From: a virus
Direction: 5' to 3' (one strand)
Length of the DNA stretch: 64,000 bases
IMG/VR virus record: IMGVR_UViG_3300028840_002702
Coordinates: 18,745 to 82,744 of that record
Part shown: positions 42,024-60,978 of the stretch, piece by piece
How positions within the stretch are numbered: position 1 is the stretch's first letter
Layout of the letters: every line of letters starts with the position of its first letter
Notes under the pieces: model-generated
What the model was told of the DNA's origin: nothing
Seen by the model: the letters and a program-made list of their open reading frames with translations, nothing else
Databases searched by the model: none
Translations under genes and position numbers: made by a program

Positions 42024-42051
42024 TTTACTTATATCAGTTTTGAATTATATT
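42024..42051 (+). promoter_or_regulatory. Early promoter TTTACT-N16-TATATT
   Basis: The same consensus recurs more than 10 times downstream. Confidence 0.8.
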
Positions 42052-42149
42052 ATATATAGGTGGAGGGTAATATATAATGGATATATTAACCCTGCTGCCG
42101 CCCTTAATTAAAACGGGCATTGCGCCCAACACCAAAAAGGAGATCTACC

Positions 42150-42581
42150 ATGATCACCAAAAACGCCGCCACTCTGGCAATCCTGACCGAAGCCCTCAAC
42201 TCCCTGGCAGTCCGTGCGAAGAAGAACAAACTCCAAGACGGTGACACTAAGTTGCTCGAATCCATCTGGCGTTGCTCCTTCACATCCCACACCAAATACG
42301 ACCGCGAAGCGGTTGGCGAGTTCGCAAAAATCATCAACTACGGCGGAACACCTCCTACCAAGCCGGAAAACGATGATCAGGAACAATACGACTACGTCGT
42401 ATCCAACGCCCATAAGTGGATCGCAAAATGGGATATCTGCCCTAAGATAACCGCTAAGCTCGAAGAAGAAGCTGCCAAGAAGAAAGCTGAGGAGCAAGCC
42501 GCGAAGGAAGCTGAGAAAGCGGCTAAGGAAGCCGAAGCCGCCGCTCAGAAGGACGAATCCTCGGAAGAGAAATCCGCCTAA
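42150..42581 (+). CDS. GC-rich early protein with EAK-rich C-terminal tail; paralog of 60430..60927
   Basis: IWRCSFTSHT..NYGG..HKWI.KW shared with the paralog; AAGGAG RBS. Confidence 0.85.
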   Translation: MITKNAATLAILTEALNSLAVRAKKNKLQDGDTKLLESIWRCSFTSHTKYDREAVGEFAKIINYGGTPPTKPENDDQEQYDYVVSNAHKWIAKWDICPKITAKLEEEAAKKKAEEQAAKEAEKAAKEAEAAAQKDESSEEKSA

Positions 42582-42595
42582 CGGATAACCACCCT

Positions 42596-42625
42596 CCCCG
42601 GACCTCCATGGTCCGGGGACCTTTT
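42596..42625 (+). terminator. GC-rich hairpin, terminator-like
   Basis: CCCCGGACC-TCCAT-GGTCCGGGG then CTTTT. Confidence 0.65.
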
Positions 42626-42777
42626 GAGTCGCATTAATTGTCCAGAGCAAATAGTTGTACAGAGAAATTCTCGCGAGCTCGCCGCAATTAGTGGATTCAA
42701 GAGGTCCTCGGATACCTTGAAATCCGCAACTTAACCAAACAACGAGCTCCTTTCAACGAGCTCAAAGGAACGAAGAA

Positions 42778-43017
42778 ATGAGCATGATCATGGCAATGGT
42801 CCCTCACAAGACAACATCTGCCGGGGTACCAATCATCCCTCGTCAGCATCTCTCAACTGAAACTCGCTTTAACGCCCGTGAACGTGGTGGTGCGGTTCTT
42901 ATCACTGGGGAGAAGATCTCCTATAAGAAAGGTGTTGGTTACCTTTATACTCACTCCTACTCCCTCCGTGCAAAATTGGACACATTCCTCCACTGGTGGG
43001 ATGGCAAAGTACTCTAA
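42778..43017 (+). CDS. Hypothetical early protein
   Basis: AAGGA RBS; 79 aa. Confidence 0.6.
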   Translation: MSMIMAMVPHKTTSAGVPIIPRQHLSTETRFNARERGGAVLITGEKISYKKGVGYLYTHSYSLRAKLDTFLHWWDGKVL

Positions 43018-43052
43018 CGAGCCTTAACGAACGAGCATAAAGGAACGAGATA

Positions 43053-43781
43053 ATGTCTCACACTTTTCTTAAAACAAATTATGCCGATCATGGCATATGT
43101 CTAGGCGTTCCCTACTCTGATGGGAGCGGTTATACCACACCGCAAGTGGTAGAATACAACTTGGCGCGCCGAATGTTCTATAACTGGCGGGTAGCAGTAT
43201 ATCGCAACAGTGATAGTCAGATGCAAGTTTTGATCAATCCTACCGATCAAGAAGAAGCATCTGGATGGTTTAATGGTTCAGAAGAAGTCGAAGGACGAAT
43301 CATCGAATATGTTGCAATAGACTGTGGATCATTTTTTGATATGGATGATGGAACATGTCTTCGAATGTCACATCCAATGGAAGAATTGATTGAGTGGTCA
43401 TGCATCCTCAACGTATTCAAAGCTAAATTCTGCCCAGACATTGAATTGGCACCTAGTGCAGGATTCATTGGAGCCAAACGGAATGCGAGAGATTACAAGG
43501 TTCGATTAATAGAAGCAATCTCCTCGGCAGACTTTGAAGGGAAGGATGAGATGATCAGTAACGAGCCCTTTCCAACGACCACTTTTGATCATCAACTTGA
43601 TCAAAATGATCGCGATAAGATCATTACTAAGATCAATGAGATCTTAAAAGATGGTGTTAAAGTTGGTTGTGATTCAACGATCGTTGGCAATACTCGACAA
43701 ATCTGGAAAGCTCTTGGAATTGATCAACATCAAGAAAACCGAGTTGTTAACCTACTGAAGCGTGTAATTGATAACATCTAA
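43053..43781 (+). CDS. Hypothetical early protein
   Basis: 242 aa; AAGGA RBS. Confidence 0.7.
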   Translation: MSHTFLKTNYADHGICLGVPYSDGSGYTTPQVVEYNLARRMFYNWRVAVYRNSDSQMQVLINPTDQEEASGWFNGSEEVEGRIIEYVAIDCGSFFDMDDGTCLRMSHPMEELIEWSCILNVFKAKFCPDIELAPSAGFIGAKRNARDYKVRLIEAISSADFEGKDEMISNEPFPTTTFDHQLDQNDRDKIITKINEILKDGVKVGCDSTIVGNTRQIWKALGIDQHQENRVVNLLKRVIDNI

Positions 43782-43792
43782 ATACGAAGATC

Positions 43793-44059
43793 ATGTCAAA
43801 CAAAGAAATTATAACATGGAATACTGGGCGCCAGTATACGAGGGAAGGTCAACGAATTGGAGCAACTATCCATGAAGGAATAGTTCAATTCTCTGATTAT
43901 GACCGAATGGTATCGGGGACCTTCCCACATATACCTGGTATTGATCTGAAAGAACAAGTCATGGATCACTACGACAATAACAAATATAGTTGTAGTATGC
44001 CATATGAACACCGACAGGAGTTGGAAGAGTATATCAAGGAACATGCACCAACCCTCTAA
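43793..44059 (+). CDS. Hypothetical early protein
   Basis: WNTGRQYT.EGQRI motif. Confidence 0.7.
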   Translation: MSNKEIITWNTGRQYTREGQRIGATIHEGIVQFSDYDRMVSGTFPHIPGIDLKEQVMDHYDNNKYSCSMPYEHRQELEEYIKEHAPTL

Positions 44060-44076
44060 CAAGAAAGGAACGAGCT

Positions 44077-44256
44077 ATGATCAACGAGCTAGAACAACAA
44101 GAACGACCACCTCAAGTAGTAAAAGAAGAACTAATCAATCTTCTCCAGGAATTCTCAGATCATCTCTTCAGTGGAAACTATGATGGTGATTGGGATGAAG
44201 ATGATATCCAAGATATCAAGAATGCAACAGGAATCCTCCAAGACGAAATTGAATAG
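44077..44256 (+). CDS. Small acidic protein (59 aa, not in the ORF track)
   Basis: MINELEQQERPPQ...DGDWDEDDIQD...; AAGGA RBS. Confidence 0.65.
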   Translation: MINELEQQERPPQVVKEELINLLQEFSDHLFSGNYDGDWDEDDIQDIKNATGILQDEIE

Positions 44257-44264
44257 GACGAGCT

Positions 44265-44564
44265 ATGACGAACGAGAAATGTAAATGTAAATGGGGCCAG
44301 TATTATTCTGAGAATGAACATGGTCAATCCGTATGGGTCTGTGACGAATGTGGTGCAGTTCGTGATAAACCAAAAGAACAAGAATTCACCTGCGCAGAAT
44401 GTAATAAGGAGATTCATGGCAGAATCAATCTAGTGGATCCAGGATCCTATGGATTTGTTAGATTCAAAAATGAACCACATGAAGAGATCTGTGATGAATG
44501 CTGGGATCGCAGAGTCAATAACCAAGGAGATCGTTACTACCTAAATAGCGAGGCAGCCTACTAA
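44265..44564 (+). CDS. Cys-rich Zn-finger protein
   Basis: CKC, CDEC, CAEC, CDEC. Confidence 0.7.
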   Translation: MTNEKCKCKWGQYYSENEHGQSVWVCDECGAVRDKPKEQEFTCAECNKEIHGRINLVDPGSYGFVRFKNEPHEEICDECWDRRVNNQGDRYYLNSEAAY

Positions 44565-44753
44565 ATGAAATATGAGAAGATTAAAATCGTTATAGGTGCA
44601 TTGTGTCTAATAGCATCTATAGGAATAATTACATATATCAGTACGAGACCAATCAACGAGCTTGGCTTGTACGAGTTTGTAATCAATTCATTCTTTCTGA
44701 TACTATGTGCAATCATAGTAGATAAATGGTTGTTTATAAGGATGCGTGACTAG
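44565..44753 (+). CDS. Small two-TM membrane protein
   Basis: Two hydrophobic segments; GAGG RBS. Confidence 0.6.
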   Translation: MKYEKIKIVIGALCLIASIGIITYISTRPINELGLYEFVINSFFLILCAIIVDKWLFIRMRD

Positions 44754-44845
44754 TGTCACTCGGTGTCCCTCGTTAGCTATCACGCGAGCGAGAACACAAT
44801 TCCCAACAACCCAAACAAACCCTCCCTAACGGGTAGACCTATGTC

Positions 44846-44873
44846 TATATAATCACGTTTCGTTAAAAGTAAA
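44846..44873 (-). promoter_or_regulatory. Leftward promoter of the TTTACT-N16 class
   Basis: Minus strand reads TTTACT-N16-TATATA, the same variant as at 20865. Confidence 0.5.
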
Positions 44874-44903
44874 CTAAGAAAAGACTGGAGTTGAAAAAAA
44901 GTT

Positions 44904-45071
44904 ATGTTCAATAAGAATGCTCTAATTATAATAGGAGTAGTACTGTTCATTTATGGTGTTATCTTTCCCCCACCTAAATCAATTGAATTCATGCGTCAAC
45001 CAATGATTACTGCATCTATTATCCTATTAGTATTAGGTAGTACATATACAAACTTGGATAAAAAAGAATGA
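44904..45071 (+). CDS. Small membrane protein (55 aa)
   Basis: MFNKNALIIIGVVLFIYGVIFP...; GGAG upstream; a 34-aa hydrophobic ORF (45068-45172) is coupled to it. Confidence 0.5.
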   Translation: MFNKNALIIIGVVLFIYGVIFPPPKSIEFMRQPMITASIILLVLGSTYTNLDKKE

Positions 45072-45354
45072 AGAACTCAACAAAAGAACTTTTAATATTC
45101 ATTGCATTATTCCTTAGTATATTATTCATGATGACTGCACCTCTATGGATGTATTGGATTCTTGGAAAGTGATCGCAAATGATCATTTTCAGTAGAAAAG
45201 TTGGAATAACCCTAGGGAAGATTTACCTCGTTGTATAAAAATGATCACTTTTTGATCATATGATCACTATTTTTGATCATATGAGAGCTCATATGTATAC
45301 TCCAGATGCTGCTCGTGAACTCTTGTGTTTGAGAATGGGCTGGGATGATCAAAG

Positions 45355-45441
45355 AGATGGGGTGAGATGGCAGTAGATGGCAGTAGATGGCAGTAGATGG
45401 CAGTAGATGGGGTGAGATGGCAGTAGATGGCAGTAGATGGG
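45355..45441. repeat. 10-bp tandem repeat AGATGG(CAGT/GGTG), 9 copies
   Basis: AGATGG every 10 bp from 45355 to 45435. Confidence 0.95.
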
Positions 45442-45770
45442 AATAAACGCCCATAGGTTTGCATATAAAACAACTTGCATGAACATACCGTGATGCATGA
45501 GAGTCTTTGATGGCCGTGTCTGGGCATCTTACCTACCCACATAGTAGTATGTATCCCTATAAGAAGTGTTGTATTAGCATATGATTACCTATTGTATATC
45601 CTATTATTATTATGTGTATGTATACTAACGAGAGTTGTACTACGAGCTTTTTTATTTCTTTTATTTCTTGCCTGATTCTATATCTTTTGAGACGAGTTTG
45701 AGGAAGTACGATTGTTGTGGGGAAAAATTGCAATTTTTCAATAAATAGTTCTATACAAATGGAGTATAAA

Positions 45771-46250
45771 ATGAAATTTAAGAAATTAATTGAGGCGTTT
45801 AACTATACTACTTCTATAGAGAAAGCTAAAGAAAAGTGGTATAAAGATTTTAATGCAATCAAGTTTAGTGACTTTGAAGTGAGGTGGGATCCGGAAAAAG
45901 ACAATATTGAATCTGTGATGAAAGCTTTATATGATGCTGATCAGTATGATGAAGATTGGGATGACCATGGACCTCCATTCTGGGAAATTGACATGCCATT
46001 ACCTTGGAATGATAATATTCTTTTTACTATTAATCCGTATGAGAATGGTAACATTTCAGTTAGTGTATCTGGGTTTAAAGGACGTGATGGTGTAAGAAGT
46101 GGTGTAGCGGTTAGTGATATTTTCTTAGGTACTGGGCGATTTATTAAAGGATCTTTTACAAACAAGGATCTAGAAGAGATGATGGATGAAGTGTTGGAAA
46201 AGATTATAGATAGAGATCTCCTACACCCTGCATCAAAAGATGACAATTAA
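45771..46250 (+). CDS. EAF-leader family, putative internal head protein
   Basis: MKFKKLIEAFNY; AATAAATA at 45740-45747; GGAG RBS. Confidence 0.7.
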   Translation: MKFKKLIEAFNYTTSIEKAKEKWYKDFNAIKFSDFEVRWDPEKDNIESVMKALYDADQYDEDWDDHGPPFWEIDMPLPWNDNILFTINPYENGNISVSVSGFKGRDGVRSGVAVSDIFLGTGRFIKGSFTNKDLEEMMDEVLEKIIDRDLLHPASKDDN

Positions 46251-46301
46251 TATGTGATATATCCAGAACTTAAATAACGAGATGTCAACTACGAGATTTT
46301 T

Positions 46302-46327
46302 GGGAGCTTTTGGCTCCCATTATTTTT
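46302..46327 (+). terminator. Rho-independent terminator
   Basis: GGGAGC-TTTTG-GCTCCC followed by a T-rich tail. Confidence 0.65.
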
Positions 46328-46350
46328 GTTTAAAAAAGTTTAAGGATAAT

Positions 46351-46378
46351 TTTACTTTGTTAATTTACATGTTATATT
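46351..46378 (+). promoter_or_regulatory. Early promoter
   Basis: TTTACT-N16-TATATT with extended -10 TG. Confidence 0.8.
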
Positions 46379-46420
46379 ATAATAACAACTTATAATGGAC
46401 TTAATAAAAGGAACATTGTT

Positions 46421-46693
46421 ATGGGCAGGTATATTGAAGGCCCCGCAAAAGGTAAAGTTAATCACATCGTTGACATGGGCGCAACTGTTATCAGTGAAGA
46501 TGGTGCACGACAAATCATGGAATCAGGTGACGAAGACAATGGTGTAATTATTGTTGTTGATAATGGACCATTTGAAGCCGCTGCGTGGGCATTTGATCTT
46601 CGTGAGTTCAAAGTATTCACTAACCCTCGTGATCACCGTCCAAAAACTTTCTTAACCATGAACCGTGAAACTATTATGAAGGTAGCTAAATAA
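46421..46693 (+). CDS. Hypothetical early protein
   Basis: VVDNGPFEAA motif; AAGGA RBS. Confidence 0.75.
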   Translation: MGRYIEGPAKGKVNHIVDMGATVISEDGARQIMESGDEDNGVIIVVDNGPFEAAAWAFDLREFKVFTNPRDHRPKTFLTMNRETIMKVAK

Positions 46694-47058
46694 TGATTAC
46701 ACGGACTAAACTATCCGAAACAGCAATTGATGAGATTGCATACTGTATTGAACGTGGTAGTAAACTTACAGCAATTAAAACATTGCGTCAACACATCAAA
46801 ATTAGTCTTTTAGATGCAAAAGAACTAATTGAAGCGTATGATTGTCCAGCTAATTATAGTAGCAATAATGGAAGTCTTACTGTAATCCGTAGTGCAGAAG
46901 ATGAAAGACTTGCATATAAATCTGCAAACCGTTTCCGTGCTGATATGGCACGGTATGAATTTGTTACACATACCTTTGAAGAAATAATGGATGACGTAAT
47001 ACGTGAATTTGGTCACGTTCGAGCACTTCAATACATCGCAAATCAAATGGAGGTTTAG
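46693..47058 (+). CDS. Protein with a ribosomal L7/L12 C-terminal-like domain
   Basis: KLTAIKTLRQHIKISLLDAKELIE versus L12 KIxxIKxxRxxxGLGLKEAKDLVE. Confidence 0.6.
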   Translation: MITRTKLSETAIDEIAYCIERGSKLTAIKTLRQHIKISLLDAKELIEAYDCPANYSSNNGSLTVIRSAEDERLAYKSANRFRADMARYEFVTHTFEEIMDDVIREFGHVRALQYIANQMEV

Positions 47059-48177
47059 ATGCCGCGACGTACACAATCGTTACTTGGTGAACTGGTTGAA
47101 GGTTCATGGGAAGAAATCCAGAATTATAACCATGCTGAATTCTTTGATTTTGCCGCCGGAACAATCGATGATTTGACCGAGGAAGAAGCATGGGATTACT
47201 GGGAAGGTGTTGGACTTACACCTCATGCAGATAATGAACATGATCTTGACTGGGAAGAAACTAAAGATCTTGTAGGAGTTTGGGAGTATGAGTAAAGAAC
47301 TTATCGGGTATCTTGCCTTTTCTAAATCAGGCATTAAGTTCATCAAACCATCTAAACAACGTAAACCGAAAACACAATACAACTTCGGTGGACGAGATGC
47401 TACTATCGAGAAATGTGGTAGTCAATGGGAAGGTGTGTTTGATGATGATCATGGTCACACTTTCATTGCTGATCGGAAACGAGATGTAATTAATGATATG
47501 AAATGTCATGTTAATGTTTCGTAAAATTTGAAGTTGGAGAAAATCAATGAATATTTTACAAAAGCAACTATTGGATAAAAAGATTGTTGGTATTCATGAG
47601 ATCGAAGGATCATGTGTAGATCAATATCATTTGATATTGAATGATGGTACTAAAATTGTTATCAGTAACGAGCATCATACTGGTTCTTTTGAAGTTCATG
47701 AACCTGGAATGATTTGCGGGGGTACTGTTAAAATTCATCGCGATGAATTTGTAAAAGGTCGTACTGAAGATTTCTTTGATCCTTGTTGTATGGTATGTCA
47801 TGAAGAAATTGAAACAGCAATTCTTTATGAAGCTGGACATGAATCTACTTACGTATGTTGTCCAATGTGTTATGAACAAACGAAGTAAGTATTAAAGAAG
47901 ATACTAAAGAGGAAATATAATGTCAGGAAAAATTGAATGGTCAAAGTCTGGATCTTATTCAACAATTCATCCTGAGAAAATCGGGAAAGTCACTGCACCA
48001 AATGGTAAACAATATCGTGCCAAACCAACACTTAATTGTTGTGACTGTGCTTTCTCTTCAATGTTTTCACCATGTAATGATCGTCAAACATTACCATGTG
48101 AGACGGGTGATTTGATTACTATTGATGGCAAAACATATCGTATGGAACGAGATACTGCATGGGAAAAGGTTACTTAA
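47059..48177 (+). CDS. Four small early ORFs (47059-47295, 47288-47524, 47547-47888, 47920-48177)
   Basis: Closely packed ORFs with RBSs; acidic or Cys-rich; no function recognised. Confidence 0.6.
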
Positions 48178-48211
48178 GAAATCTTTTGTTCATTATTTTT
48201 ATAAAAATGTT

Positions 48212-48239
48212 TTTACTTTTATTAAAATGATGTTATATT
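48212..48239 (+). promoter_or_regulatory. Early promoter
   Basis: TTTACT-N16-TATATT. Confidence 0.8.
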
Positions 48240-48315
48240 ATATTAAACCGCAAGGAATATAATAAAGGATATTAAGTGAAAGACCAAATCAAATTTTTAA
48301 ACCTCTTTAAACCAT

Positions 48316-48627
48316 GTGGAGAATATTGTGGCTAAGATTACATTAGACTTTGCTGTTGTAACTGAAGAAGAAACGATGGCTTTGTATCAAGAGTTCATTG
48401 AATATCTCTTGGATTTCGGATGTAATAATCCTGATGTACGTGCAATGACGTACGAAGAATTAAAAGAATATCATGCTACAAGAAATCCTAATTCAAACGA
48501 CTTTACACTTACTGGTCATATTGACGACATCAAACTATATCTTAAAGAGAAATACTGTGTTGGTATGACTGAAGAAGATATTAAAGAAACAATAAATTCA
48601 ATTGAAGATAGCGGAGATGTAAAATGA
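48316..48627 (+). CDS. Acidic hypothetical protein
   Basis: 103 aa; start uncertain. Confidence 0.55.
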   Translation: MENIVAKITLDFAVVTEEETMALYQEFIEYLLDFGCNNPDVRAMTYEELKEYHATRNPNSNDFTLTGHIDDIKLYLKEKYCVGMTEEDIKETINSIEDSGDVK

Positions 48628-49058
48628 CTAAAGAAGAACGTGCCGCTTATATGAGGGAGTATCGAAAGAAAAATCCCGAATATGCTAAAAAATGTAGTGA
48701 ATATACGAGACAATGGCGGGAAAATAATCCGGAACGAAGCAAAGAATTATGTGATAAATCACGTGAAAAGAATCGTGATAAAATTAATGCACGGAAACGT
48801 GCAAAACGTGCAGCTGATCCTGAGAAAGAACGTGAAAAAGAACGTGCATATCGTGCACGTAATCCTGAATTAACTAAAGCACGGAACAAAATATCTAACG
48901 ACAAAGCTATTGAAGAACGTCGTAATGATGAAGAGAAACGATTGGCGTATAATAAACGTATGCGTGAATATCGTAGAAAGAATCCTGAAAAGATCAAAGC
49001 AATTAACGATAAATGCAGAAAGAAAAAATTGGAGGAAGAAAATGTCAAAGAAAGTTGA
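48624..49058 (+). CDS. Basic R/K/E-rich repeat protein
   Basis: Repeated MREYRxKNPE-type units; GGAG RBS. Confidence 0.7.
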   Translation: MTKEERAAYMREYRKKNPEYAKKCSEYTRQWRENNPERSKELCDKSREKNRDKINARKRAKRAADPEKEREKERAYRARNPELTKARNKISNDKAIEERRNDEEKRLAYNKRMREYRRKNPEKIKAINDKCRKKKLEEENVKES

Positions 49059-49647: not shown

Positions 49648-49703
49648 AAGTAATTAAAAACCTGTTTAATCTAATAAATAATAAAAACAAACAGGTTATT
49701 TTA

Positions 49704-52800: not shown

Positions 52801-52859
52801 TTTAGTAGAAAGAAATGACAATAATTTTGATTCTACCATATCTTAAAAGGAAAAAAGAG

Positions 52860-53620: not shown

Positions 53621-53693
53621 AAATCACCGATTGACCTTTTTGATTATTTATAATCCGAAAGTAAACTTTTGTTAAATTTTTTAATGGGAACAG

Positions 53694-53721
53694 TTTACTT
53701 TGATAAAATCTATGTTATATT
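53694..53721 (+). promoter_or_regulatory. Early promoter
   Basis: TTTACT-N16-TATATT followed by a small hairpin (GGAAATA / TATTTCC). Confidence 0.8.
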
Positions 53722-53781
53722 ATAATAAGTTATGGAAATAGATATTTCCTTACATTCTTAAACTTAACCGTGGAGAGTAAC

Positions 53782-54243
53782 ATGCAGAATCAACTTATTT
53801 ATGTCTGCCACTTCGACATTATCTGGGAAGACTTCGCAGCTATCTTGGGAGAAATTCACAAGATTGGAGCTGGGAAACAAATCGTCGAAATCGAATGGCA
53901 TGGTCCAGCCGGCGGAAATCCTCTTCTTCAAATTGTTTTCAATGAAGAGCAACTTACAGAATTCTACAAAATCTATACTGGCGCTGATCCAGTTGTAGTA
54001 ATTGACGAAGAAACAACAACACCAATTGCATCTGATTATGATGAATTTCTAAATCTTCATACTATTTCATATTCAATTGATGCAATCAAAAATCATCTGA
54101 AACACGAACTGGTTCATAAGGTTGGCTTAGATGGAATTCCACTTAAAGAAATGTGCGAAGCGCTTGGAATTTCAGATAAATTCTATGAACTTGGTCGTGT
54201 ACAATATGAAGCAATGACTAACCATCTATTTACTGAGGAATAA
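53782..54243 (+). CDS. Hypothetical protein
   Basis: HGPAGGNP motif; GGAG RBS. Confidence 0.7.
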   Translation: MQNQLIYVCHFDIIWEDFAAILGEIHKIGAGKQIVEIEWHGPAGGNPLLQIVFNEEQLTEFYKIYTGADPVVVIDEETTTPIASDYDEFLNLHTISYSIDAIKNHLKHELVHKVGLDGIPLKEMCEALGISDKFYELGRVQYEAMTNHLFTEE

Positions 54244-54247
54244 ATAA

Positions 54248-54631
54248 ATGTCAACAAGGGCAATGGTCGGAATTTTGGACGTGGAAACGGGTAAGATCTC
54301 AGCATCTTATTGTCACTGGGCATCAGAGTTGGATGATGAACTCCCTAATTACTGGGATTCAGAACACGGTGCAGAACAATTAGCCTATCATGGTTATATG
54401 TCGGAAATTGATCGGGGTGAAATTGAAGTAACTCCTGGCGCAATTCCTGGTGAAGATACTGAGGAATACTCGGAGTATAAAAATATTACAGAGCTCATGG
54501 AAAAGATGGCAATCTGTGACTATTTTTATATTTGGGAAAATAACGATTGGACTGTGTATGGAGGTTATCACAGTTATCAACTCGGCAGAGATGTATGGGA
54601 TGATGATGAGGATGACGAATACAAAGACTAA
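54248..54631 (+). CDS. Acidic phage protein of the MSTR...YCHW type
   Basis: MSTRAMVG...YCHW, DYFYIW; GAGG RBS. Confidence 0.7.
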   Translation: MSTRAMVGILDVETGKISASYCHWASELDDELPNYWDSEHGAEQLAYHGYMSEIDRGEIEVTPGAIPGEDTEEYSEYKNITELMEKMAICDYFYIWENNDWTVYGGYHSYQLGRDVWDDDEDDEYKD

Positions 54632-54671
54632 TTCAAGGCAAAAATAAGTTAAAAATAATTTAATTATTGTA

Positions 54672-54699
54672 TTTACTTTTATTCGTTTTGAATTATATT
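54672..54699 (+). promoter_or_regulatory. Early promoter
   Basis: TTTACT-N16-TATATT followed by a hairpin (AATGGAA / TTCCATT). Confidence 0.78.
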
Positions 54700-54775
54700 T
54701 ATATTAAGGAATGGAATAATGGTTCCATTTTATAACTTAACCAAACTAAAACCAGCAACAACCGGAGGCTACGGG

Positions 54776-55462
54776 ATGCTGAAATTGACAAAAGATGAAC
54801 GCCATGAAAGAATGATCGCAATTCATGGATCGGGAAAACCACTGACTGACCACGTGGATGAAATACTTGCAATTAATGAACAGCTTGTTCAATCTCAAGC
54901 TCGCCACAATGCACGCTTTAACCGAACTGGTCTTGATGTAAATGACTTTATTCAAATTGGTTTATTGGCAATTACACATTGCTGCGATAACTTCAAACCT
55001 GAAGAACATGTAAATGATCTTAACAATCTTGATGAAATTCAAGAGGTTTGGAAATCCTACATGTACAAACGAATCAAAAACAAACAACGTAACTTGAACC
55101 GCCTCAAGAAATACGAAAACGAAAATGGACTTCCAACAAGTCTAGAAGTTGCAACCGCTTCTGATGACGACGATACAAAGCTCCATGAAGTTATCGAAGA
55201 TGAAGGTGCTGATAAGTTTGCTGATTTATTTAGCATGGATTACAAAATCATTGCTGAAATGATTGAATCAGAAACTGTTCTAACAGAACGTGAACGAACC
55301 ACAATTATCCACAAACTTGGATTATGGGATCAACCTATTCTAAAGAATGTTGAGATTGCTGATATTATCGGAGTTACTAAAGCCGATGTCAAAAATCAAT
55401 TTGATCGTGGAATCCGTAAATTGCGGGCACGGTTGATCGAACTTGATCCATCTTTAATCTAA
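54776..55462 (+). CDS. sigma70-family RNA polymerase sigma factor
   Basis: Region 2 NEQLVQSQA..DFIQIGLLAI..FKP; region 4 LTERER..EIADIIGVTKADV..RGIRKLR; GGAGG RBS. Confidence 0.85.
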   Translation: MLKLTKDERHERMIAIHGSGKPLTDHVDEILAINEQLVQSQARHNARFNRTGLDVNDFIQIGLLAITHCCDNFKPEEHVNDLNNLDEIQEVWKSYMYKRIKNKQRNLNRLKKYENENGLPTSLEVATASDDDDTKLHEVIEDEGADKFADLFSMDYKIIAEMIESETVLTERERTTIIHKLGLWDQPILKNVEIADIIGVTKADVKNQFDRGIRKLRARLIELDPSLI

Positions 55463-55474
55463 TGGAGGTACCAC

Positions 55475-56157
55475 ATGCCAACTAAAGAAACCACAAAACA
55501 CAAGAAAGATCAATACGAAGATTTTAATGATCCACGTATTGATACTAGTCGCCCATTGTATTTCCCGACTCCTGCCCACGAGGACATGATGCGAGACTTA
55601 CGTGACAAACAATTAATCGCCGGAATTGAAGGAGCAGACGACTAATGAATGCTGAAGACCTTGATAAATGTCATCTCACACATAATTTGATTGCACTCGA
55701 ATACCGAAGTTTTGATCAAAATTATCGTGGTGATGATCCAATTGAAGATACTAAACCACTTCAAGCACTTGAAGTAGAAGAAGCAGAAGAGTTTATAGCC
55801 GCAATTATGGGTGACGAAAATAATTCAATTGAAGATCAAATTCGTCATTTAGCAGTTCGTATTGAATACCTTCTACCAGGCGTCAAAGATCTTCCTGAAG
55901 AACAATACGAAGAAGTGATGGAAGCTCTTCGGATTATTAACGTAACAATCTGAGATCGAACAATGAATGATCCAGTTTTTGGGAATAGAAGTGTTGAGCA
56001 AATAATTAGTGAATTCAAAGATTATCTTGATAAAATGTCTGATGAAGAATTCAACGATATTGTAAAGTTTGCTGAAGCTCTCCCACCAGTCCAAATCATA
56101 TGTCCGTTTGATCACGAGAATGATATTAACGAGAGTTCATTAACGAGTAAAAAATAG
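55475..56157 (+). CDS. Three small ORFs (55475-55645, 55645-55953, 55963-56157)
   Basis: Closely packed, acidic, no function recognised. Confidence 0.55.
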
Positions 56158-56179
56158 TTAAAAAAGTTTTAAAGATTAT

Positions 56180-56207
56180 TTTACTTTGTTAAATAACATG
56201 TTATATT
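56180..56207 (+). promoter_or_regulatory. Early promoter
   Basis: TTTACT-N16-TATATT. Confidence 0.82.
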
Positions 56208-56246
56208 ATAATATGATTTGGAATACTTAACCAAAAAGGAGTACCA

Positions 56247-56798
56247 ATGAAAAACGCAACCGCAATGCAACTGGCTCAACTCTGTGATGCCAATACCTTT
56301 GAAGCCGCAATCGAATTTGTTGATAAGTTCAACATCACATTCGGAACAAGCATTTCACCAACTGAAGTTGTTCTCGAAATGAACAAGAACGGATACAAGA
56401 TTCCGGTGAACTTTGAATTCGATCACCTCGAAACTTTCTCTAAGGTTCTTCCATGCGGAGTGAAGGGAAAGAAAATGACTGTACTCGTTACAACAAAATC
56501 TGAAATTACTGTCGATCTTTCTAAAGATATTGACCTTCAAATTTTGGCAGAAGTAACTGCTAAGGGTACATCCGAGACCATTAAAAGCATGGTCAAACCA
56601 ACCAAGAAGAAACGAAAGAAATCAATTACCCGGAAAATTTGGACAGCTGAAGATGATGAACTCGTAATGAGTGATGAAAAAATCTCATTGCTGGCCGAAC
56701 TTCTTGGTCGGTCCCAACAAGCGGTTTATAATCGCCGCTATAACCTCCGCAAACAAGCTGCTAACGCAGCCGGTAATGGCCCAGTATTTTTGTGTTAA
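56247..56798 (+). CDS. Putative DNA-binding protein with a C-terminal Myb/SANT-like HTH
   Basis: WTAEDDELV...LAELLGRSQQAVYNRRYNL; AAGGAG RBS. Confidence 0.7.
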   Translation: MKNATAMQLAQLCDANTFEAAIEFVDKFNITFGTSISPTEVVLEMNKNGYKIPVNFEFDHLETFSKVLPCGVKGKKMTVLVTTKSEITVDLSKDIDLQILAEVTAKGTSETIKSMVKPTKKKRKKSITRKIWTAEDDELVMSDEKISLLAELLGRSQQAVYNRRYNLRKQAANAAGNGPVFLC

Positions 56799-56816
56799 AA
56801 AAATTATAAAGATGAT

Positions 56817-56844
56817 TTTACTTTGAATAATTCTATGTTATATT
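56817..56844 (+). promoter_or_regulatory. Early promoter
   Basis: TTTACT-N16-TATATT. Confidence 0.82.
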
Positions 56845-56882
56845 ATTATATCAAAGGAATAACTTAACTTAAGGAATGTTAG

Positions 56883-58428
56883 ATGCCTGATAAAATGACT
56901 GCAGAAGATCTCATTGCGCATGTTGGAACGGACATTGATCCGCTATTAAAAGCGGGATTATTTCTTGACACAACAGACTTAATGGCACGCAATGGAACAC
57001 TTAGATTCTGGGATCCAAAAACAGATGAGCTTTACACTCTTAACGAAGCAACTGGTTATGTTCGTCGCTTCACTACAACAAATTCTTACAAGAAACATTT
57101 ACCGTACCCACTTAATCCCCGTCCGAGTAAGACGGTTACCCACGGACAATTCTTTCAAACGAAGGAACGAGTACTAGGGGATTACATTAGACTTCATGAT
57201 ATTAAAGAACAAGTCAAACGAGTTTTACAAACATTAAGGAGGAGACATGCCGCGCTCAATAAAAACACCTGACGAAATAGCACAAAACGTGCTTAATCAA
57301 CTAACATGTGCATGTGGCGATATTGCTGCTTGTACTGTAGATTACGATGGTAATATTTTAAGACAATTACCTGGACTTGGAGACTCTCGCTGGACACGTC
57401 GAGCACGCCAAGCAAAGGCTGATGGAGTTATTGATCTTCATGGTTGGCTGGCGGATGAAATCTATAACGACTCTGATACAATTCGTGATTATTTAGGAGA
57501 CTGGATCCACGATAATTGTAATAATGACGTTGAACTCTATAACAAAGTTTGTATTGAGCTTATTCAAATTGGACACTCAGCAGTAAAATCTGCTGCACAA
57601 ACACTTATAAGGGATTAAGTTAATGAAAGCGCATGATAAACGTGATATCTTTAAAACAGTTGTTGCACGTCTCAACGATTGTAAAACCGAACTTAAAGAT
57701 ATCACGGAAGATCCAGACGATTCTCAATGTAAGGATGTATCATCCTTTAAAAACATGTTTAATGACATGATTGACGACGCTACTTGGTATATGAATCATT
57801 ATGAGAAAATTGCCGATGCTTGTTGCAAATCATGTGAAAAAGAATTAGATCAAAGATGGATTCATTGTCCATTTTGTGGAACCAAAAGAGCTGCCTAATG
57901 TTTATCGCAACAACCTTTATTATACCCGCAATTGTTTTAGCACTACTAGTTGTAGGAATCTTTAAAAGATCAAGACAATTACTTGAAATTAAAGAATTTG
58001 AAAAAGAATGTAGTTCATTACATTTCCGAGCGAAAAATATAATGAAAGTTGTTAACAATGATATTGAAATTATTAAGAATGAAAAACGACGAGTATTAGC
58101 TGCATGGTCAATGGTAGATCTTTATCACGATTCAGTTAAAATTGGTGATGAAGAAACTATCAAGAAGTGTGGCACTTGGTTTAAAAATTCTAAGAAAGAA
58201 AATCTCTTTGACGAGGAATAGATGATGCGAAATCTTTTTAAAGTATTATGGAAAGAGTTTAAAACTCTTGTTGCAATTGCAGGATTATTCTCAGTATTAA
58301 CTCTTGCTGTTTGGGGTACAGCATATGTTACAGCAAAGCATTGCCGAATACAAGCTGAGAAAGAGAAGCGTATACTTGCCAAAGTATTCTACGAATATCG
58401 GTTGAAAAATCCACCGAAGCAAAAGTAA
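56883..58428 (+). CDS. Operon of five small ORFs (56883-57272, 57247-57618, 57623-57898 Zn ribbon, 57898-58221 TM, 58222-58428 TM)
   Basis: Coupled ORFs; CxxC..CPFCG in the third; hydrophobic segments in the last two. Confidence 0.6.
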
Positions 58429-58446
58429 AATAATTTTAAAATAGTT

Positions 58447-58474
58447 TTTACTTTTTAACTTTTCATGTTATATT
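58447..58474 (+). promoter_or_regulatory. Early promoter
   Basis: TTTACT-N16-TATATT. Confidence 0.8.
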
Positions 58475-58510
58475 ATAATATCAAAGAAAATAAGAATAAG
58501 GATTATAAAG

Positions 58511-60313
58511 ATGTTCTGTGAAACATGTAAAATGAATGACCGCTTAGTTGAAGGCGATTTCTTTTGTGAAGAATGTAACGAAGCTAAATGCGAAGAGTGT
58601 ATGTTAAACTGTGAAGCATGTGGTTTCGATCTTTGTGATTCTTGTAATGAAGATTTGGATGTATGTCCACAATGTAAAGAACCTTTAAAATGAAAAATAT
58701 TGTTTGTTATCTCGTATTGCTCACCATCGCAATTGTAGGTCTTGTTAGATGTGAACAAGTTGAATCAATACTTGGAAGCTACGCATTTTTAATGAGTGCA
58801 ATTGCGATAGTGATTCTTATTTTTATGGAGATAATAACAATTGCAACTGGAGAAAATAAATGAGAATGCTTGTAACATTTGGTCAAGAACATGCTCATAG
58901 AATCAATAACCAAACTCTTGACAAAGATTCAGTGGCAGTAATTAATTGTGATAATTATGATCACGGTCGCAAACTTGCATTTGAATTTTTTGATAACAAA
59001 TTTCACAATACATATGAAGAAGGAAAAGAACCGTCTAACTTAATGTTCTGGTTCCCACGAGGAAAAATCGAGGTTAATTAATGCCTAAAGTACAAATTGT
59101 TAAATATGATATCACGGTTACTGAACCACCATTTACTTTAATTGTTGTTGGTGAGTTTGAATATGATGAACCAATAGATGATCATCTCGGAGAAAAACGC
59201 TCAATAATCTTGGCTCGTGAATGTAGAAAACAAGGTTTTGATATGCAGTTTATTACATCAAGTGATGCTGAAGGATATGATCATGATGTTTTTGTTCATC
59301 TAACACAAGAAGAATGGCCGCATTGTAGTGATGGTAAATTTAATTGTTTTTGTTCTCGGGATGAAAAACTCTATAATCGATATAACGAATTTAACTATAT
59401 TGATATTGAGAGTACCAATTTTCCTCCGTGTCCCATTTGTGATAATAATGCAGTTTATCCATCTGAATTTTTCTTTAATAAAGAAGAACCAAATCTTACT
59501 TGTATGAAATGTAATTTAAATCTACATTTAGCTGATTGGAAAATATTAGCGGAGCGAGTAGACAGAACAAAGGTTGCAACTATCTAATGGATTATTACGA
59601 ACAAGAACGCATTAAACAACAAAAATTTGATCGGCAATTTAAAGCTGCTCAACAACGTTACGATAACCAGCTTCCACCTGATTATGAAGATGGCCCTGAA
59701 TTTGAAGACTATCCCAGCGAATATCGTGGGTGGAAATGTCTTGAATGTCATGAAATTTATTTGGCATCAGAATATGATGATGAACCAACGAAATGTCAAT
59801 GTTGTTTTGAATGTGCAGATGAATATCCGGATCCTCATCCAGGATTTGAAGAGTACATTGATTATAATGGATTTAATCAGTATCAAAATGATGCTGAAGC
59901 CGAAGCTGCATTAGATGCAATGGATTGGTAACATGAAAAAACGAAATAGATATACTCATCGAAATATTTTTGGCAAGGTTATGGAAACTTTCTATAACTT
60001 TCATGGAACTGTTGAAGAAGCAGTAGAAATTCTTCGTCCACATCACTGGATCTTAAATGAAATTTATAAGAACAGTCTTGAAGAAGAAACCAAGCTTAGT
60101 AAAGAATATGGGTTTGATTCTAAACCTGATACTAGGAGTGGCGAAGAAACATATGGATATAAATCAGACGAAGATATCTTATGTAACCTCTTTTATATCT
60201 CAGATCGATGGGGTTGTGCATTTCGTGTCAGATGGATACTTGATTTAATTGATCGTTATGATGAAAACAAGAATAATTCTAAAGACAAAAAAAGTTTTAA
60301 AAAAATAATATGA
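58511..60313 (+). CDS. Operon of six small ORFs (58511-58693 Cys-rich, 58690-58863 TM, 58860-59081, 59081-59587, 59587-59931, 59933-60313)
   Basis: Translationally coupled starts and stops; many CxxC motifs. Confidence 0.6.
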
Positions 60314-60317
60314 AGTT

Positions 60318-60345
60318 TATACTTTTTAATGTTTGATGTTATATT
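60318..60345 (+). promoter_or_regulatory. Early promoter
   Basis: TATACT-N16-TATATT followed by a long 5' hairpin. Confidence 0.78.
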
Positions 60346-60429
60346 ATATTATCAAAGGAATAATAGTAAATCCATTATTATTCCCTTTAATTAAAACTGG
60401 GCCTCTGCCCACAACATGGAGTAACCACC

Positions 60430-60927
60430 ATGATCAGCAAAGCTGAAGCAATCCAAGCCATCCTGGCTGAAGCCGTCGCCTCCCTTGAGGCTCGTAAAGA
60501 CAACCTGACATCCGAAGACATCGCCCTCCTCGGCGCTATCTGGCGTTGCAGCTACACCTCCCACACCAACTTCAACAGTGAAGTGGTTGAATCCTTTGGC
60601 CGCATCACCAACTACGGTGGCGACCTTCCGATGATCGACGGTCTGACCGAAGAAGAAACCGAAGAGTACACCGCGATCGTTAAGAACGGTCACAAGTGGA
60701 TCGGTAAGTGGGGCGTAATGCCGGAAATTACCGAACGCCTCGAAGCTGAAGAAGCCGAACGGAAGCGTCTGGAAGAAGAAGCCAAGGCGGAAGCCAAGGT
60801 GAAAGCCGAGCAGGAAAAGAAGGAAAAGGAAGAAGCTGAAGCGAAAGCTGCAGCCGAAGCCGAAGCCGAAGAACAATCCGAGCCGGCCCAGACCACGAAG
60901 AAAGGCAGCAAAAAGAAGTCTGCCTAA
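60430..60927 (+). CDS. GC-rich early protein with EAK-rich tail; paralog of 42150..42581
   Basis: IWRCSYTSHT..NYGG..HKWIGKW; ends KSA like its paralog. Confidence 0.85.
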   Translation: MISKAEAIQAILAEAVASLEARKDNLTSEDIALLGAIWRCSYTSHTNFNSEVVESFGRITNYGGDLPMIDGLTEEETEEYTAIVKNGHKWIGKWGVMPEITERLEAEEAERKRLEEEAKAEAKVKAEQEKKEKEEAEAKAAAEAEAEEQSEPAQTTKKGSKKKSA

Positions 60928-60950
60928 CTTCCACACTACCCTGGAATAAT

Positions 60951-60978
60951 TACGGGGTCCAATTGGACCCCGTACTTT
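60951..60978 (+). terminator. GC-rich hairpin, terminator-like
   Basis: TACGGGGTCC-AATT-GGACCCCGTA then CTTT. Confidence 0.7.

Follow-up and report, generated by a model that had tools for sequence, protein, structure and literature searches.

We analyzed a window of 64,000 nucleotides from an 82.7-kb viral record and characterized two plus-strand genes, hereafter A and B, together with the elements that flank them (Table 1). The source phage is a distant T4-like marine myovirus; its gp43-type polymerase is ~30% identical to cyanomyovirus gp43, and the record also contains T4-like genes for a baseplate wedge, tail fibres, an SbcCD-like pair, RNR and a sigma factor, the last of the sigma-70 family and encoded at 54719–55462. 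The record is 36% complete.

Table 1. Positions of A, B and their flanking elements in the window
Feature	Position	Strand	Description or basis
A/T block AAAAAAAGTTTTAAAAAA (UP-element-like)	41982..41999	+	Upstream of the promoter of A
Promoter of A	42024..42051	+	–35 TTTACT, 16-nt spacer, –10 TATATT; register follows the class consensus
Leader of A (~92 nt)	42058..42149	+	RNA folding; putative start
Paralogue A	42150..42581	+	143 aa; BLASTP against B, codon usage
Intrinsic terminator after A	42595..42629	+	Hairpin 42595–42619, 10-bp stem (8 GC), then CCTTTTGAGT T tract; –23.3 kcal/mol
Third codon-biased ORF	42778..43017	+	79-aa orphan just downstream of A
A/T block AAAAAAAGTTTTAAAAAA	60287..60304	+	Upstream of the promoter of B; 18-mer identical to that of A
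Promoter of B	60316..60345	+	–35-like TTTATA(CT), extended –10 TGtTATATT at 60337–60345
Leader of B (~78 nt)	60352..60429	+	RNA folding; putative start
Paralogue B	60430..60927	+	165 aa; BLASTP against A, codon usage
GC-rich 10-bp hairpin after the stop codon of B	60951..60974	+	Then ACTTTAAT (weak T tract); –23.5 kcal/mol, z = –3.67

The paralogy of A and B proposed in the first-pass annotation was borne out by BLASTP (57/124 identities, 46%; E = 2e-30), as were the common motifs IWRCS(F/Y)TSHT, NYGG and HKWI(A/G)KW and the E/A/K-rich tails terminating in KSA. The start of A was placed at ATG 42150, which suits the GGAG spacing and agrees with the MITKNAA start of the orthologues, rather than at TTG 42120. 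Orthologues of A and B, from a related phage, are at the level of 68–70% identity, compared with 46% between the two copies; judged from their sequences, the paralogues separated long ago, and their family is an orphan one with ~8 members. Homologue searches gave 4 hits at E ≤ 0.001 among 1.84 billion representatives and 3 hits in each of two runs against 5.8 billion clusters, and no family match was found in Pfam, PHROG or NCBIfam. Only L19, P67, K93, W94 and P98 are invariant across all 8 homologues, and there is therefore no catalytic-looking set of residues.

The AF2 model of B (pLDDT 82.9; helices 4–21, 29–41, 50–59, 74–94 and 98–149) predicts a four-helix domain followed by a long E/K/A helix, and no fold match was found among solved structures. 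Neither fold nor family searches gave a match that would point to a takeover or anti-defence role, or to another particular function. Three runs predicted the A + B complex with an ipSAE of 0.79, against 0.00 for the best of 3 controls, a mark reached by 58/80 solved complexes and 2/110 mismatched pairs; the prediction was made from 5-row alignments and does not separate homo- from heterodimers, and close relatives of a genuine partner would reach the mark as well. The runs agreed in at least 96% of contacts with a partner pLDDT of at least 86, and the predicted interface is symmetric, comprising residues 1–19 and 32–42 of each chain, with no contacts made by the tails. The proteins are thus predicted to dimerise. 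Their net charges are –3 (A) and –12 (B); the N-domain is neutral in A (0) and acidic in B-type proteins (–7), and both tails are net negative. In P0006, a distant homologue, the K/P/A tail is basic (net charge +13).

Both genes are preceded by promoters of a T4-type early class (GTTTAC-like –35, TGnTATATT and an upstream A/T block; consensus (G/T)TTTACTTTG-N-TGtTATATT), which has ~10 members from 42 to 60.4 kb. According to PMC1524935, the –35 of T4 early promoters is GTTTAC and their upstream element is A-rich. A strict scan for the class gave 8 plus-strand matches, all within 42045–60339, and a looser scan of both strands gave 12 plus-strand hits, 10 of which are upstream of ORFs, and 3 minus-strand hits. 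The –35 sequences of A (ATTTAC) and B (TTATAC) depart from the consensus. Exact matches to the 16-mer core of AAAAAAAGTTTTAAAAAA occur in the window at 41984 and 60289 and nowhere else, and the other early-class promoters have comparable, non-identical A/T blocks. The proposal of a duplicated expression cassette accordingly holds for the leader, terminator and codon bias, which are specific to the pair, but not for the promoter, the class of which is common to ~8 other genes of the region.

All of the parts previously ascribed to this cassette (promoter, leader hairpins, linker and post-stop hairpin) are present in A and B. With the transcription start placed 7 nt past the –10 hexamer, the leader of A would comprise hairpin 1 (42059–42099), the G-free linker CCCTTAATTAAAAC (42101–42114), hairpin 2 with a GGGC/GCCC stem (42115–42127) and GGAG (42139–42142), and that of B would comprise hairpin 1 (60357–60384), a G-free linker (60385–60397) with CCTTTAATTAAAAC, hairpin 2 with a TGGGC/GCCCA stem (60398–60411) and GGAG (60418–60421). 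The minimum free energies were –30.2 kcal/mol for A (z = –3.14) and –23.0 kcal/mol for B (z = –4.30), and 0/200 shuffles folded as well in either case. Among the 10 class promoters at 42–60.4 kb, only those of A and B have such long structured leaders (–27.4 and –22.4 kcal/mol in this comparison); the leaders of the eight others are 30–70 nt long and almost unstructured (0 to –4.8 kcal/mol). The suggestion of a conserved leader element gained support from two orthologues, in which the architecture is kept with altered stem sequences. All 4 leaders consist of a hairpin, an unpaired linker of 13–15 nt and a GC hairpin of 4–5 bp (z = –2.7 to –4.3), the variants of hairpin 2 being GGGC/GCCC, UGGGC/GCCCA and GGUUC/GAACC. 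There are exactly two perfect copies of CCYTTAATTAAAAC, one at the equivalent place in each leader, while its count at ≤2 mismatches is not above chance (expected 3.09; at least 2 in 83/100 shuffles).

The GC-rich hairpin after the stop codon is the second private feature of A and B besides the leader, and it is found in 4/4 cases when the two orthologues are included; in the L003 orthologue, the equivalent hairpin is followed by ACCTTTTCGG. The hairpin of B was absent from the output of the terminator scan, which needs 5 T in 8.

We further analyzed codon usage, which had been noted as unlike that of the other genes. A (GC3 0.63–0.64) and B (0.62) indeed have the two top GC3 values of the 119 ORFs in the record (mean 0.233, sd 0.116). 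The other 48 of the 50 plus-strand genes at 42–64 kb have a mean GC3 of 0.273 (sd 0.071, maximum 0.519); the bias of A and B is ~5 sd over these neighbours, and extreme outliers are limited to 2–3 genes. The C-ending share of pyrimidine-ending codon pairs was 0.87 in A (n = 31) and 0.93 in B (n = 27), compared with 0.29 ± 0.12 in the others. In A and B together, AAC (11/11), TAC (7/7), ATC (16/18), ACC (13/19) and TCC (12/18) predominate, as do CTG and CTC for Leu (14/17; TTA 0/17 vs 34% in the background), CGT and CGC for Arg (8/9; AGA 0/9 vs 39%) and GGC and GGT for Gly (12/13). The description of these codons as C/G-ending thus applies to NNC, CTG/CTC and CGY, but not uniformly, as Glu is encoded by GAA in 41/50 cases (82%). 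AAG (63%) and GCC (47%) are also preferred, and these two preferences could in part be plain GC pull. Since GAA is at 82% and CGT and GGT are in use, there is no uniform GC shift in A and B, and the bias, on codon counts, looks like translational optimisation rather than a plain GC shift. At conserved degenerate residues, the orthologue has a different codon in 40/89 (A) and 41/114 (B) cases; the codon bias is kept in A, B and both orthologues despite a synonymous turnover of 36–48% (orthologue GC3 0.54 in L003 and 0.48 in L004, with contig GC of 0.35 and 0.41, respectively). The earlier idea of host-tuned codons gains indirect support in so far as the pattern, kept in the orthologues, is what translational selection would produce in a host with a preference for CTG/CTC, CGY, NNC and GAA; optimal codons were judged from the pattern itself, using bacterial optimal-codon generalities as the yardstick. 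A similar codon bias would arise if mRNAs were selected to be stable by having fewer AU-rich cleavage sites.

These results favor, with reasonable probability, an explanation in which A and B are small, non-enzymatic, dimer-forming helical proteins, each produced from a self-contained, high-output early unit with host-preferred codons. Each unit would be essentially monocistronic, with unmodified host sigma-70 RNA polymerase transcribing from its T4-type early promoter. The hairpin at the extreme 5΄ end of the transcript may block 5΄-end-dependent decay, the exposed G-free A/U/C linker and the small GC hairpin may serve ribosomes, as a standby or enhancer site, or a regulator, GGAG would be the Shine–Dalgarno (SD) sequence, and the 3΄ GC hairpin would close the unit. 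The coding sequences would be written in the translationally preferred codons of the host; if codons were chosen for fast, abundant translation by naive host machinery, the local GC richness would therefore reflect synonymous-site selection and not recent transfer. The sequence signals suggest early timing and high abundance; a search for RNA runs containing the sequence found none. As dimers, the proteins would act in stoichiometric amounts. Their putative target, bound through the conserved aromatic/basic patch (WRC..T.H, NYGG and KWIxKW), would be abundant and could be a host macromolecule or nucleic acid, and the E/K/A helix would serve as a non-pairing spacer or solubilising tail.

Parallels exist among known early proteins. 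The product of T7 gene 0.3 (Ocr) is a small, dimeric early protein without enzymatic activity; strong early promoters that directly follow a non-coding region rich in repeats drive its synthesis in bulk. In T7 gene 0.3 and gene 10, protective hairpins bound the transcripts and a strong SD is combined with an A/U-rich enhancer. By analogy, A and B may resemble these genes in protein type, bulk production, early promoters and their location, bounding hairpins and SD plus A/U-rich enhancer; however, they are not strongly acidic, have no fold match to solved structures and belong to another phage lineage. T4 AsiA is a small, all-helical early protein that dimerises via its N-terminal helices, and A and B are likewise small, helical proteins of a T4-type phage with an early promoter, a predicted symmetric N-terminal-helix dimer and a phage-encoded sigma-70-family factor nearby. 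However, there is no sequence or fold match, AsiA lacks the 45–70 residue E/K/A helix, and a low-copy sigma binder has no obvious need of such extreme expression signals. As reported in PMC5683454 and PMC3152331, codon bias varies among phage genes with the time of their expression, and AT-rich T4-like phages use unmodified host machinery early; the bias of A and B, in contrast, is not class-wide but confined to 2–3 genes and coupled to a private leader and terminator.

As a more specific variant of this explanation, A and B might be abundant nucleic-acid-binding proteins that attach to the leader of their own mRNA, at the structured element plus the exposed UUAAUUAAAA-type linker, and so repress their translation once their primary ligand is saturated, which we regard as rather unlikely. 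T4 gp32 is such an autogenous repressor. Its operator, as outlined in PMC3014915, has a structured element ~67 nt upstream; the A+U-rich sequence that follows is unstructured, carries UUAA(A) repeats and extends up to the RBS. The long leaders of A and B, also from a T4-like phage, resemble this operator (PMC3014915) in having structured elements 50–90 nt upstream and then an unstructured A/U-rich linker with UUAA-type repeats (UUAAUUAAAA, UUAAAUAAAC or CUAACCAAAC), but they form two simple hairpins rather than a pseudoknot, and the linker stops short of the SD, with hairpin 2 and a spacer between, and does not overlap the RBS. The gene 32 unit is described as autoregulated with a very stable, abundant mRNA (PMC3014915, PMC1524935) and conserved downstream terminators (PMC1524935); a conserved terminator is shared by A and B, as is, by our proposal, a stoichiometric need for the product. 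The specificity of the leader to A and B within the promoter class, its conservation in orthologues and the basic tail of P0006 are consistent with autogenous control. So are the conserved W, R, Y and K residues, of kinds used in nucleic-acid binding, although neither gp32 nor other nucleic-acid-binding families gave a match, the all-helical fold has no specific match, and the B-type N-domains and the tails are negatively charged.

It is less probable still that A and B are abundant structural or assembly proteins (scaffold-like, internal or involved in building an intracellular structure) for which a bulk requirement arises later in infection, rather than early factors directed at the host. 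Extreme expression signals are in keeping with bulk production, scaffolding proteins typically dimerise and have a charged, alpha-helical composition, and the polyampholyte tail with a predicted dimerising domain could drive self-assembly. However, A and B follow T4-type early promoters in a region of small genes and are well separated from the genes for tail and baseplate in the record; no late-type promoter was seen, and PHROG structural families gave no match.

Recent horizontal acquisition from a higher-GC donor, by which the GC content would be unameliorated ancestry and say nothing on expression, appears very improbable. A and B have a GC content of 0.53–0.54 in a genome of ~0.30, with codon positions 1 (0.55–0.60) and 2 (0.40) also raised, and GCC and AAG are favored. 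However, near-identical bacterial homologues, which the first-pass annotation had named as evidence for transfer, were not found in three large searches, one of them of GTDB species genomes, in which none was confirmed, and neither these searches nor INPHARED phages and IMG/VR yielded a bacterial or other higher-GC homologue. Moreover, the bias is present in all four genes despite old divergence and synonymous turnover, GAA, CGT and GGT are used, both genes are under the promoter class of the phage itself, and GC3 falls gradually across the genes downstream of A (0.52, 0.36, 0.38, 0.31 and 0.35). A reading of the GGGC..GCCC hairpin and its A-rich 5΄ flank as a minus-strand intrinsic terminator against antisense transcription, in place of a leader element, is likewise very improbable: read on the minus strand, each copy has a terminator-like score (hairpin plus GTTTTAATTA or CGTTTTAATT) and the L004 layout is identical, but the plus strand carries nearly every gene of the region (99/119 ORFs in the record), neither a minus-strand gene nor a class promoter faces the sites, the T tract of the L003 orthologue is poor on the minus strand, and the element is invariably between hairpin 1 and the SD.

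The third codon-biased ORF has a GC3 of 0.52 and a C-ending share of 0.72; the 5.8-billion-cluster search found only the ORF itself, and Pfam, PHROG and NCBIfam gave no match. Since it has no class promoter of its own, it is probably expressed through read-through from A.

Genes A and B are two old paralogues, whose products are identical at 57 of 124 aligned residues (E 2e-30), and the shared motifs that the first-pass annotation had listed are present in this alignment. Two metagenome loci from related phages carry orthologues, L003 one of the A type (70% identity) and L004 one of the B type (P0001, 68%). The IMG/VR virus record in which A and B lie, of which the window covers bases 18745-82744, is 82.7 kb long, is 36% complete according to CheckV and has an overall GC content of ~0.30. 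Its gp43-type family B DNA polymerase gave the best tblastn matches to T4-like cyanomyoviruses, at ~30% identity (2166 records matched), and the record further encodes a ribonucleotide reductase, glycosyltransferases and a sigma-70-family factor, with a baseplate wedge subunit, tail fibres and an SbcCD-like pair located 5' of the window. We read the record as a distant T4-like marine myovirus. A sequencing-run search found the sequence in two DNA runs, one from a sediment and one from a seawater metagenome, and in none of the RNA runs listed, and tRNA scans found no tRNA genes in the window, L005, L003 or L004, nor in the whole record.

Coordinates of genes A and B and of other features in the window and in related loci
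Feature	Sequence	Coordinates	Strand	Remarks
Gene A	window	42150-42581	+	143 aa
Gene B	window	60430-60927	+	165 aa
Strict-scan promoter sites	window	42045-60339	+	all 8 sites
ORF directly 3' of A	window	42778-43017	+	79 aa
B in protein collection (P0002)	window	60631-60927	+	98 aa, from internal Met
Inverted repeat after B	window	60980-61057		perfect, 28 bp
RNA fold over this repeat	window	60978-61125		-50.5 kcal/mol, z -6.35
Analogous long stem	L004	770-875		z -4.76
Sigma-70-family factor	window	54719-55462		PHROG 351, E 2e-15
Repeat-rich non-coding region	window	41064-41980		0.9 kb, directly 5' of A
75-nt unit x6	window	41348-41805		
TTGATACGAGCCTT x6	window	41892-41975		
Tandem 10-nt repeat AGATGGCAGT x7.6	window	45355-45440		30-nt super-unit x2.9
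ACGAG concentration	window	41281-46295; also 56128/56142	+	
ACGAG bracketing start codons	window	43045, 44070, 44258		GGAACGAGnnATG
ACGAG sites	L003	4598-4654, 4846-4874, 5259-5273	+	
FK-P motif family	window	40331-?, 45717-46250, 49704-50246, 50243-51298		
FK-P motif family	window	53030-53620	-	
FK-P motif family	L003	397-3378		four tandem copies
ORF in tail-fibre region	L005	1535-2911	-	458 aa; record bases 1535-2914

A strict scan of the + strand of the record, for TTATATTATA preceded by TG, gave eight sites, each 5' of a + strand ORF. A looser scan of both strands with the pattern (G/T)TT(T/A)AC-N16-18-TAYAWT gave 12 matches on the + strand, 10 of them convincing, and 3 on the - strand; A and B were missed here because their -35 boxes deviate. 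The class consensus consists of an A/T-rich block, (G/T)TTTACTTTG, a spacer and TGtTATATT. All class members have TATATT, which puts an A at -11 and a T at -7, preceded by TGt in B and in eight other members from the strict or loose scans and by AAt in A. The -35 boxes of A (ATTTACTT) and, more weakly, B (TTTATACTTT) are GTTTAC-like, and UP-like A/T blocks of the AAAAAAGTTTTAAA type lie 5' of most members, further upstream in B (~10 nt) and A (~30 nt). Early promoters of the T4 family, as described in an excerpt of PMC1524935, combine a GTTTAC -35 (-36 to -31) with a UP-like element rich in A and with a GT-rich segment just 5' of the -10. Judged by these elements, the promoters of A and B belong to the T4-type early (sigma-70) class, and host RNA polymerase would transcribe from the class promoters during the first minutes of infection. 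A sigma-70-family factor encoded within the early-promoter region suggests that the phage uses a sigma factor of its own to redirect transcription after the early phase.

The first-pass annotation had proposed a duplicated expression cassette. The small-gene region at 42-60.4 kb contains about ten class members, so the promoter was not duplicated for A and B alone, and this part of the proposal falls away; what stands is the leader, the 3' hairpin, the common string TACTTTTTAAT and an identical 18-nt A/T block that A and B share beyond the class, the 16-mer core of which occurs exactly twice in the window. The A orthologue in L003 has two complete tandem promoters upstream.

Assuming that transcription starts 7 nt past the -10 hexamer, we compared the leaders of the 10 class promoters. 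Those of A (92 nt, MFE -27.4 kcal/mol) and B (78 nt, -22.4 kcal/mol) are longer and more stably folded than the other eight (30-70 nt, 0 to -4.8 kcal/mol). The four leaders of A, B and the orthologues in L003 and L004 share one fold: a first hairpin whose start lies 0-5 nt into the predicted transcript, a G-free unpaired linker of 13-15 nt (CCCUUAAUUAAAAC, CCCUUUAAUUAAAAC, GCCCCUAACCAAACC, CCUUAAAUAAACAAAAAC), a GC hairpin of 4-5 bp (GGGC/GCCC, UGGGC/GCCCA, GGUUC/GAACC, GGGC/GCCC), and then an A/C-rich spacer, GGAG and ATG (z scores -3.14, -4.30, -2.73 and -4.04). Stem sequences vary under a constant layout, which indirectly supports the conserved leader RNA element that had been postulated; this conservation is read from four separate folds, a MAFFT alignment having left the hairpins out of register. 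The linker motif on its own is statistically unremarkable, and Rfam gave no match at the gathering threshold in the whole window. Both the leader and the 3' hairpin are private to A and B and conserved, and the leader is a compact candidate stabiliser, enhancer or autoregulatory RNA element. 5'-terminal stabilising stem-loops and the high-expression units of T7 and T4 are known systems for comparison, and by analogy the layout of A and B would give a stable, efficiently initiated and essentially monocistronic mRNA.

It is also possible, by analogy with gene 32, that A and B are under autogenous control and feed back on their own leader. An excerpt of PMC3014915 describes the gene 32 operator as a structured element far upstream and an A+U-rich run that is unstructured, carries UUAA(A) repeats and extends over the RBS, and the leader layout resembles this operator, since A, B and L004 combine an upstream hairpin with a UUAAUUAAAA-type linker (in L003 the linker reads CUAACCAAAC). 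However, the linker of A and B is parted from the SD by the second hairpin, unlike the gp32 run, and neither product has a gp32 family match; a search of the record with PF08804 (gp32) returned nothing, but the controls were equally silent. The RegB-type strong site GGAGRAYARAA, as given in the same excerpt (PMC3014915), did not fit the four SD regions in a by-eye comparison.

A GC-rich hairpin follows the stop codon in 4/4 genes (-19 to -23.5 kcal/mol), that is, in the orthologues as well as in A and B, for which it had been described earlier. In A, a 10-bp stem with 8 GC pairs is followed by CCTTTTGAGT, as in a Rho-independent terminator, and the A types, with ACCUUUU after the hairpin, have a proper intrinsic terminator. 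In the B types the U tract is weak; the sequence after the hairpin of B (ACTTTAAT) falls short of the T tract of a terminator, and B is therefore assigned a 3' hairpin only. Directly after this hairpin lies a 28-bp inverted repeat with a sigma-70-like TTGACT-18-TATCAT in its 3' arm, and L004 has a stem of other sequence at the same place. The repeat may serve as a processing site of the RNase III type, or else as a palindrome at the DNA level.

A and B have the two highest GC3 values among the 119 ORFs of the record (0.63 and 0.62; mean 0.233, sd 0.116), so that the GC-rich island noted earlier is real. Among the 50 + strand genes at 42-64 kb, the 48 besides A and B have a GC3 of 0.273 +/- 0.071, with a maximum of 0.519 in the 79-aa ORF directly 3' of A; in the five genes after this ORF, GC3 is mildly raised (0.31-0.38), and the island thus fades gradually downstream on the A side. 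The 79-aa ORF, which begins after the terminator of A, ranks third in codon bias (GC3 0.52, C-ending share 0.72), has no class promoter of its own and is an orphan that matched only itself in a 5.8-billion-cluster search. In the tail-fibre region, the GC content of a 458-aa ORF is 0.49 and is elevated at the first, second and third codon position alike (0.55, 0.51, 0.41), whereas that of A and B is driven by the third position.

The shift in A and B is codon-specific and not uniform. Pyrimidine-ending pairs are nearly all C-ending (AAC 11/11, TAC 7/7, ATC 16/18), and ACC serves for 13 of 19 Thr and TCC for 12 of 18 Ser. Leu is encoded by CTG or CTC in 14/17 cases and never by TTA (0/17; 34% in 34 long background genes), Arg by CGT or CGC in 8/9 and never by AGA (0/9; 39% in the background), and Gly by GGC or GGT in 12/13. 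Glu is still mostly GAA (41/50), and the earlier description of C/G-ending codons accordingly does not apply throughout. Such a pattern looks like translational selection for a host that is rich in tRNA-Leu(CAG) and has the usual G34 tRNAs, and an imported high-GC gene would not look like this. The orthologues in L003 and L004 have GC3 values of 0.54 and 0.48 on contigs with GC contents of 0.35 and 0.41. At conserved residues, the synonymous codon is changed at 40/89 positions between A and its orthologue, 41/114 between B and its orthologue, and 26/65 between A and B; the silent sites have therefore been extensively turned over, and all four genes have retained the bias. The pair would be a clean natural example of a phage that writes a few genes in the preferred codons of its host while the rest of the genome is AT-rich, and that gives these genes private leaders likely to stabilise the mRNA and promote translation; the pattern offers a handle for host prediction in an uncultured phage.

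Recent transfer would also account for the GC richness of A and B, and near-identical bacterial homologues, which the first-pass annotation had named as the evidence that would speak for it, were searched for and not found. The family is tiny, comprising A, B, P0001, P0003, P0004, P0008 and the distant P0005 and P0006. A search of 1.84 billion representatives gave 4 matches at E<=0.001, and two 5.8-billion-cluster searches gave 3 each, none of them identified as cellular. No homologue was confirmed among 31 pattern matches in GTDB species genomes, INPHARED gave no match at the DNA or protein level, and IMG/VR scans with B, alignment A3, P0006 and P0005 gave no confirmed match. With no cellular homologue in these collections, and no close homologue in a donor lineage of matching composition among the ~8 members found, recent transfer is disfavoured and we consider it unlikely. 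Two of the ~8 members, those in L003 and L004, lie in a phage context, the others derive from metagenome or assembly records, and a cluster look-up of the names of 5 homologues was uninformative, one being 'hypothetical protein'. The protein collection contains A at its full 143 aa (P0007) and B only as a 98-aa product, which seems to be a truncation by automatic gene call; a contig of roughly 207 kb also encodes these proteins.

Family searches with A and B gave a best E of 0.0094 in Pfam (16.1 bits against a cut-off of 30), only E 0.012 and 0.025 in PHROGs, no family in NCBIfam and a best E of 0.33 in the PDB sequence profile search. Foldseek against PDB and BFVD gave no match at E<=0.001, only generic helical-repeat matches; VIA-align against 48,161 chains gave a best Z of 9.4 (a designed repeat protein) and a best natural Z of 7.8, a result under the noise level that the tool gives for helical models; and the ESM Atlas gave no usable feature match and a structural TM of at most 0.47. 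The AF2 model of B, from an 8-row alignment (pLDDT 82.9, pTM 0.63), has helices at 4-21, 29-41, 50-59 and 74-94 and one long helix at 98-149. Only L19, P67, K93, W94 and P98 are invariant in all eight members, and the closer five also share W40 R41 C42, T45, H47, NYGG-P and K89 W90 I91 K93 W94; these residues look like a binding surface and not an active site.

Joint models of A and B reached an ipSAE of 0.79 in three runs (best of three controls, 0.00), a value reached by 58/80 solved complexes and 2/110 mismatched pairs. Contacts agreed by at least 96% between runs, the partner pLDDT was at least 86, and each chain contributes an identical surface (residues 1-19 and 32-42) to the interface, which excludes the tails. 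This modelling, which was built on our own shallow alignments and does not distinguish homodimer from heterodimer, supports dimerisation of the family, and the proteins are probably helical, non-enzymatic and dimeric. The tails are polyampholytes rich in E, K and A (net charge -5 to +4; K+R 10-18, D+E 11-21, A 14-21), replaced in P0006 by a basic K/P/A tail (net +13). Single alpha-helix domains are long, E/K/A-rich segments without hydrophobic heptads that are helical and do not pair with another chain; the modelled E/K-rich helix 98-149, lying outside the interface, has this character in silico. The C-terminal ends ...KKKSA and ...AKATA might be ClpX-type degrons, which we take as speculation. 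Anti-restriction DNA mimics such as Ocr and ArdA have a very acidic surface that imitates the phosphate spacing of DNA, whereas the N-domain has a net charge of 0 in A and -7 in B, the tails have -3 and -5, and the A-type orthologues have an overall basic pI of 8.5-8.7. Solved mimics were absent among the Foldseek and VIA-align matches listed; a similar fold may nonetheless be present.

We infer that A and B are expressed very highly and immediately by the unmodified host machinery and would act stoichiometrically on an abundant target, for which the host nucleoid, a translation component, a defence system or a nucleic acid, with feedback on their own leader, are candidates. By its combination of codons and leaders, this orphan family probably ranks among the early products that an uncultured lineage of T4-like marine phages makes in the largest amounts, and it is therefore a good candidate for a factor that acts stoichiometrically in host takeover, anti-defence or nucleic-acid coating. 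A more specific proposal, to which we give only a slim chance, is that homo- or heterodimers of A and B are a new abundant first-minute factor that feeds back on the two-hairpin leader, as in a gene-32-like operator with an unrelated helical fold, and binds an abundant host nucleic-acid-associated target, the ACGAG arrays possibly belonging to the same circuit.

The pentamer ACGAG occurs 61 times on the + and 31 times on the - strand of the window (35 versus 5 within 40-48 kb), and the + strand copies are concentrated at 41.3-46.3 kb. The spacing is exactly 14 nt in 11/60 successive gaps, ten of them among the 36 motifs at 41.0-48.5 kb, a number reached in 0/20,000 random placements. The motif often brackets start codons, and the spacing array straddles those of genes just 3' of A. 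In L003 all 19 copies are on the + strand, with none on the -, and five of them follow one another at intervals of 14 nt. The array is a candidate binding site for a translational regulator or RNA-processing factor, and together with the repeat-rich region 5' of A and the 28-bp hairpin after B it may add a layer of post-transcriptional control to the early region.

The repeat-rich region 5' of A contains ATCAAAAGACG x4.5 and ATCAATCATATC x9.4 in addition to the units in the table, and might function as an origin, as a terminus-like region or as a regulator array; the equivalent spacer in L003 is only ~600 nt, without long repeats. A tandem 10-nt repeat lies between early-region ORFs. A multi-copy protein family is defined by an N-terminal ...(E/L)(A/S)FK(I/L/V/T)P... 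motif, and in L003 each of its copies starts with MFK(T/G)P and ends with LNV.
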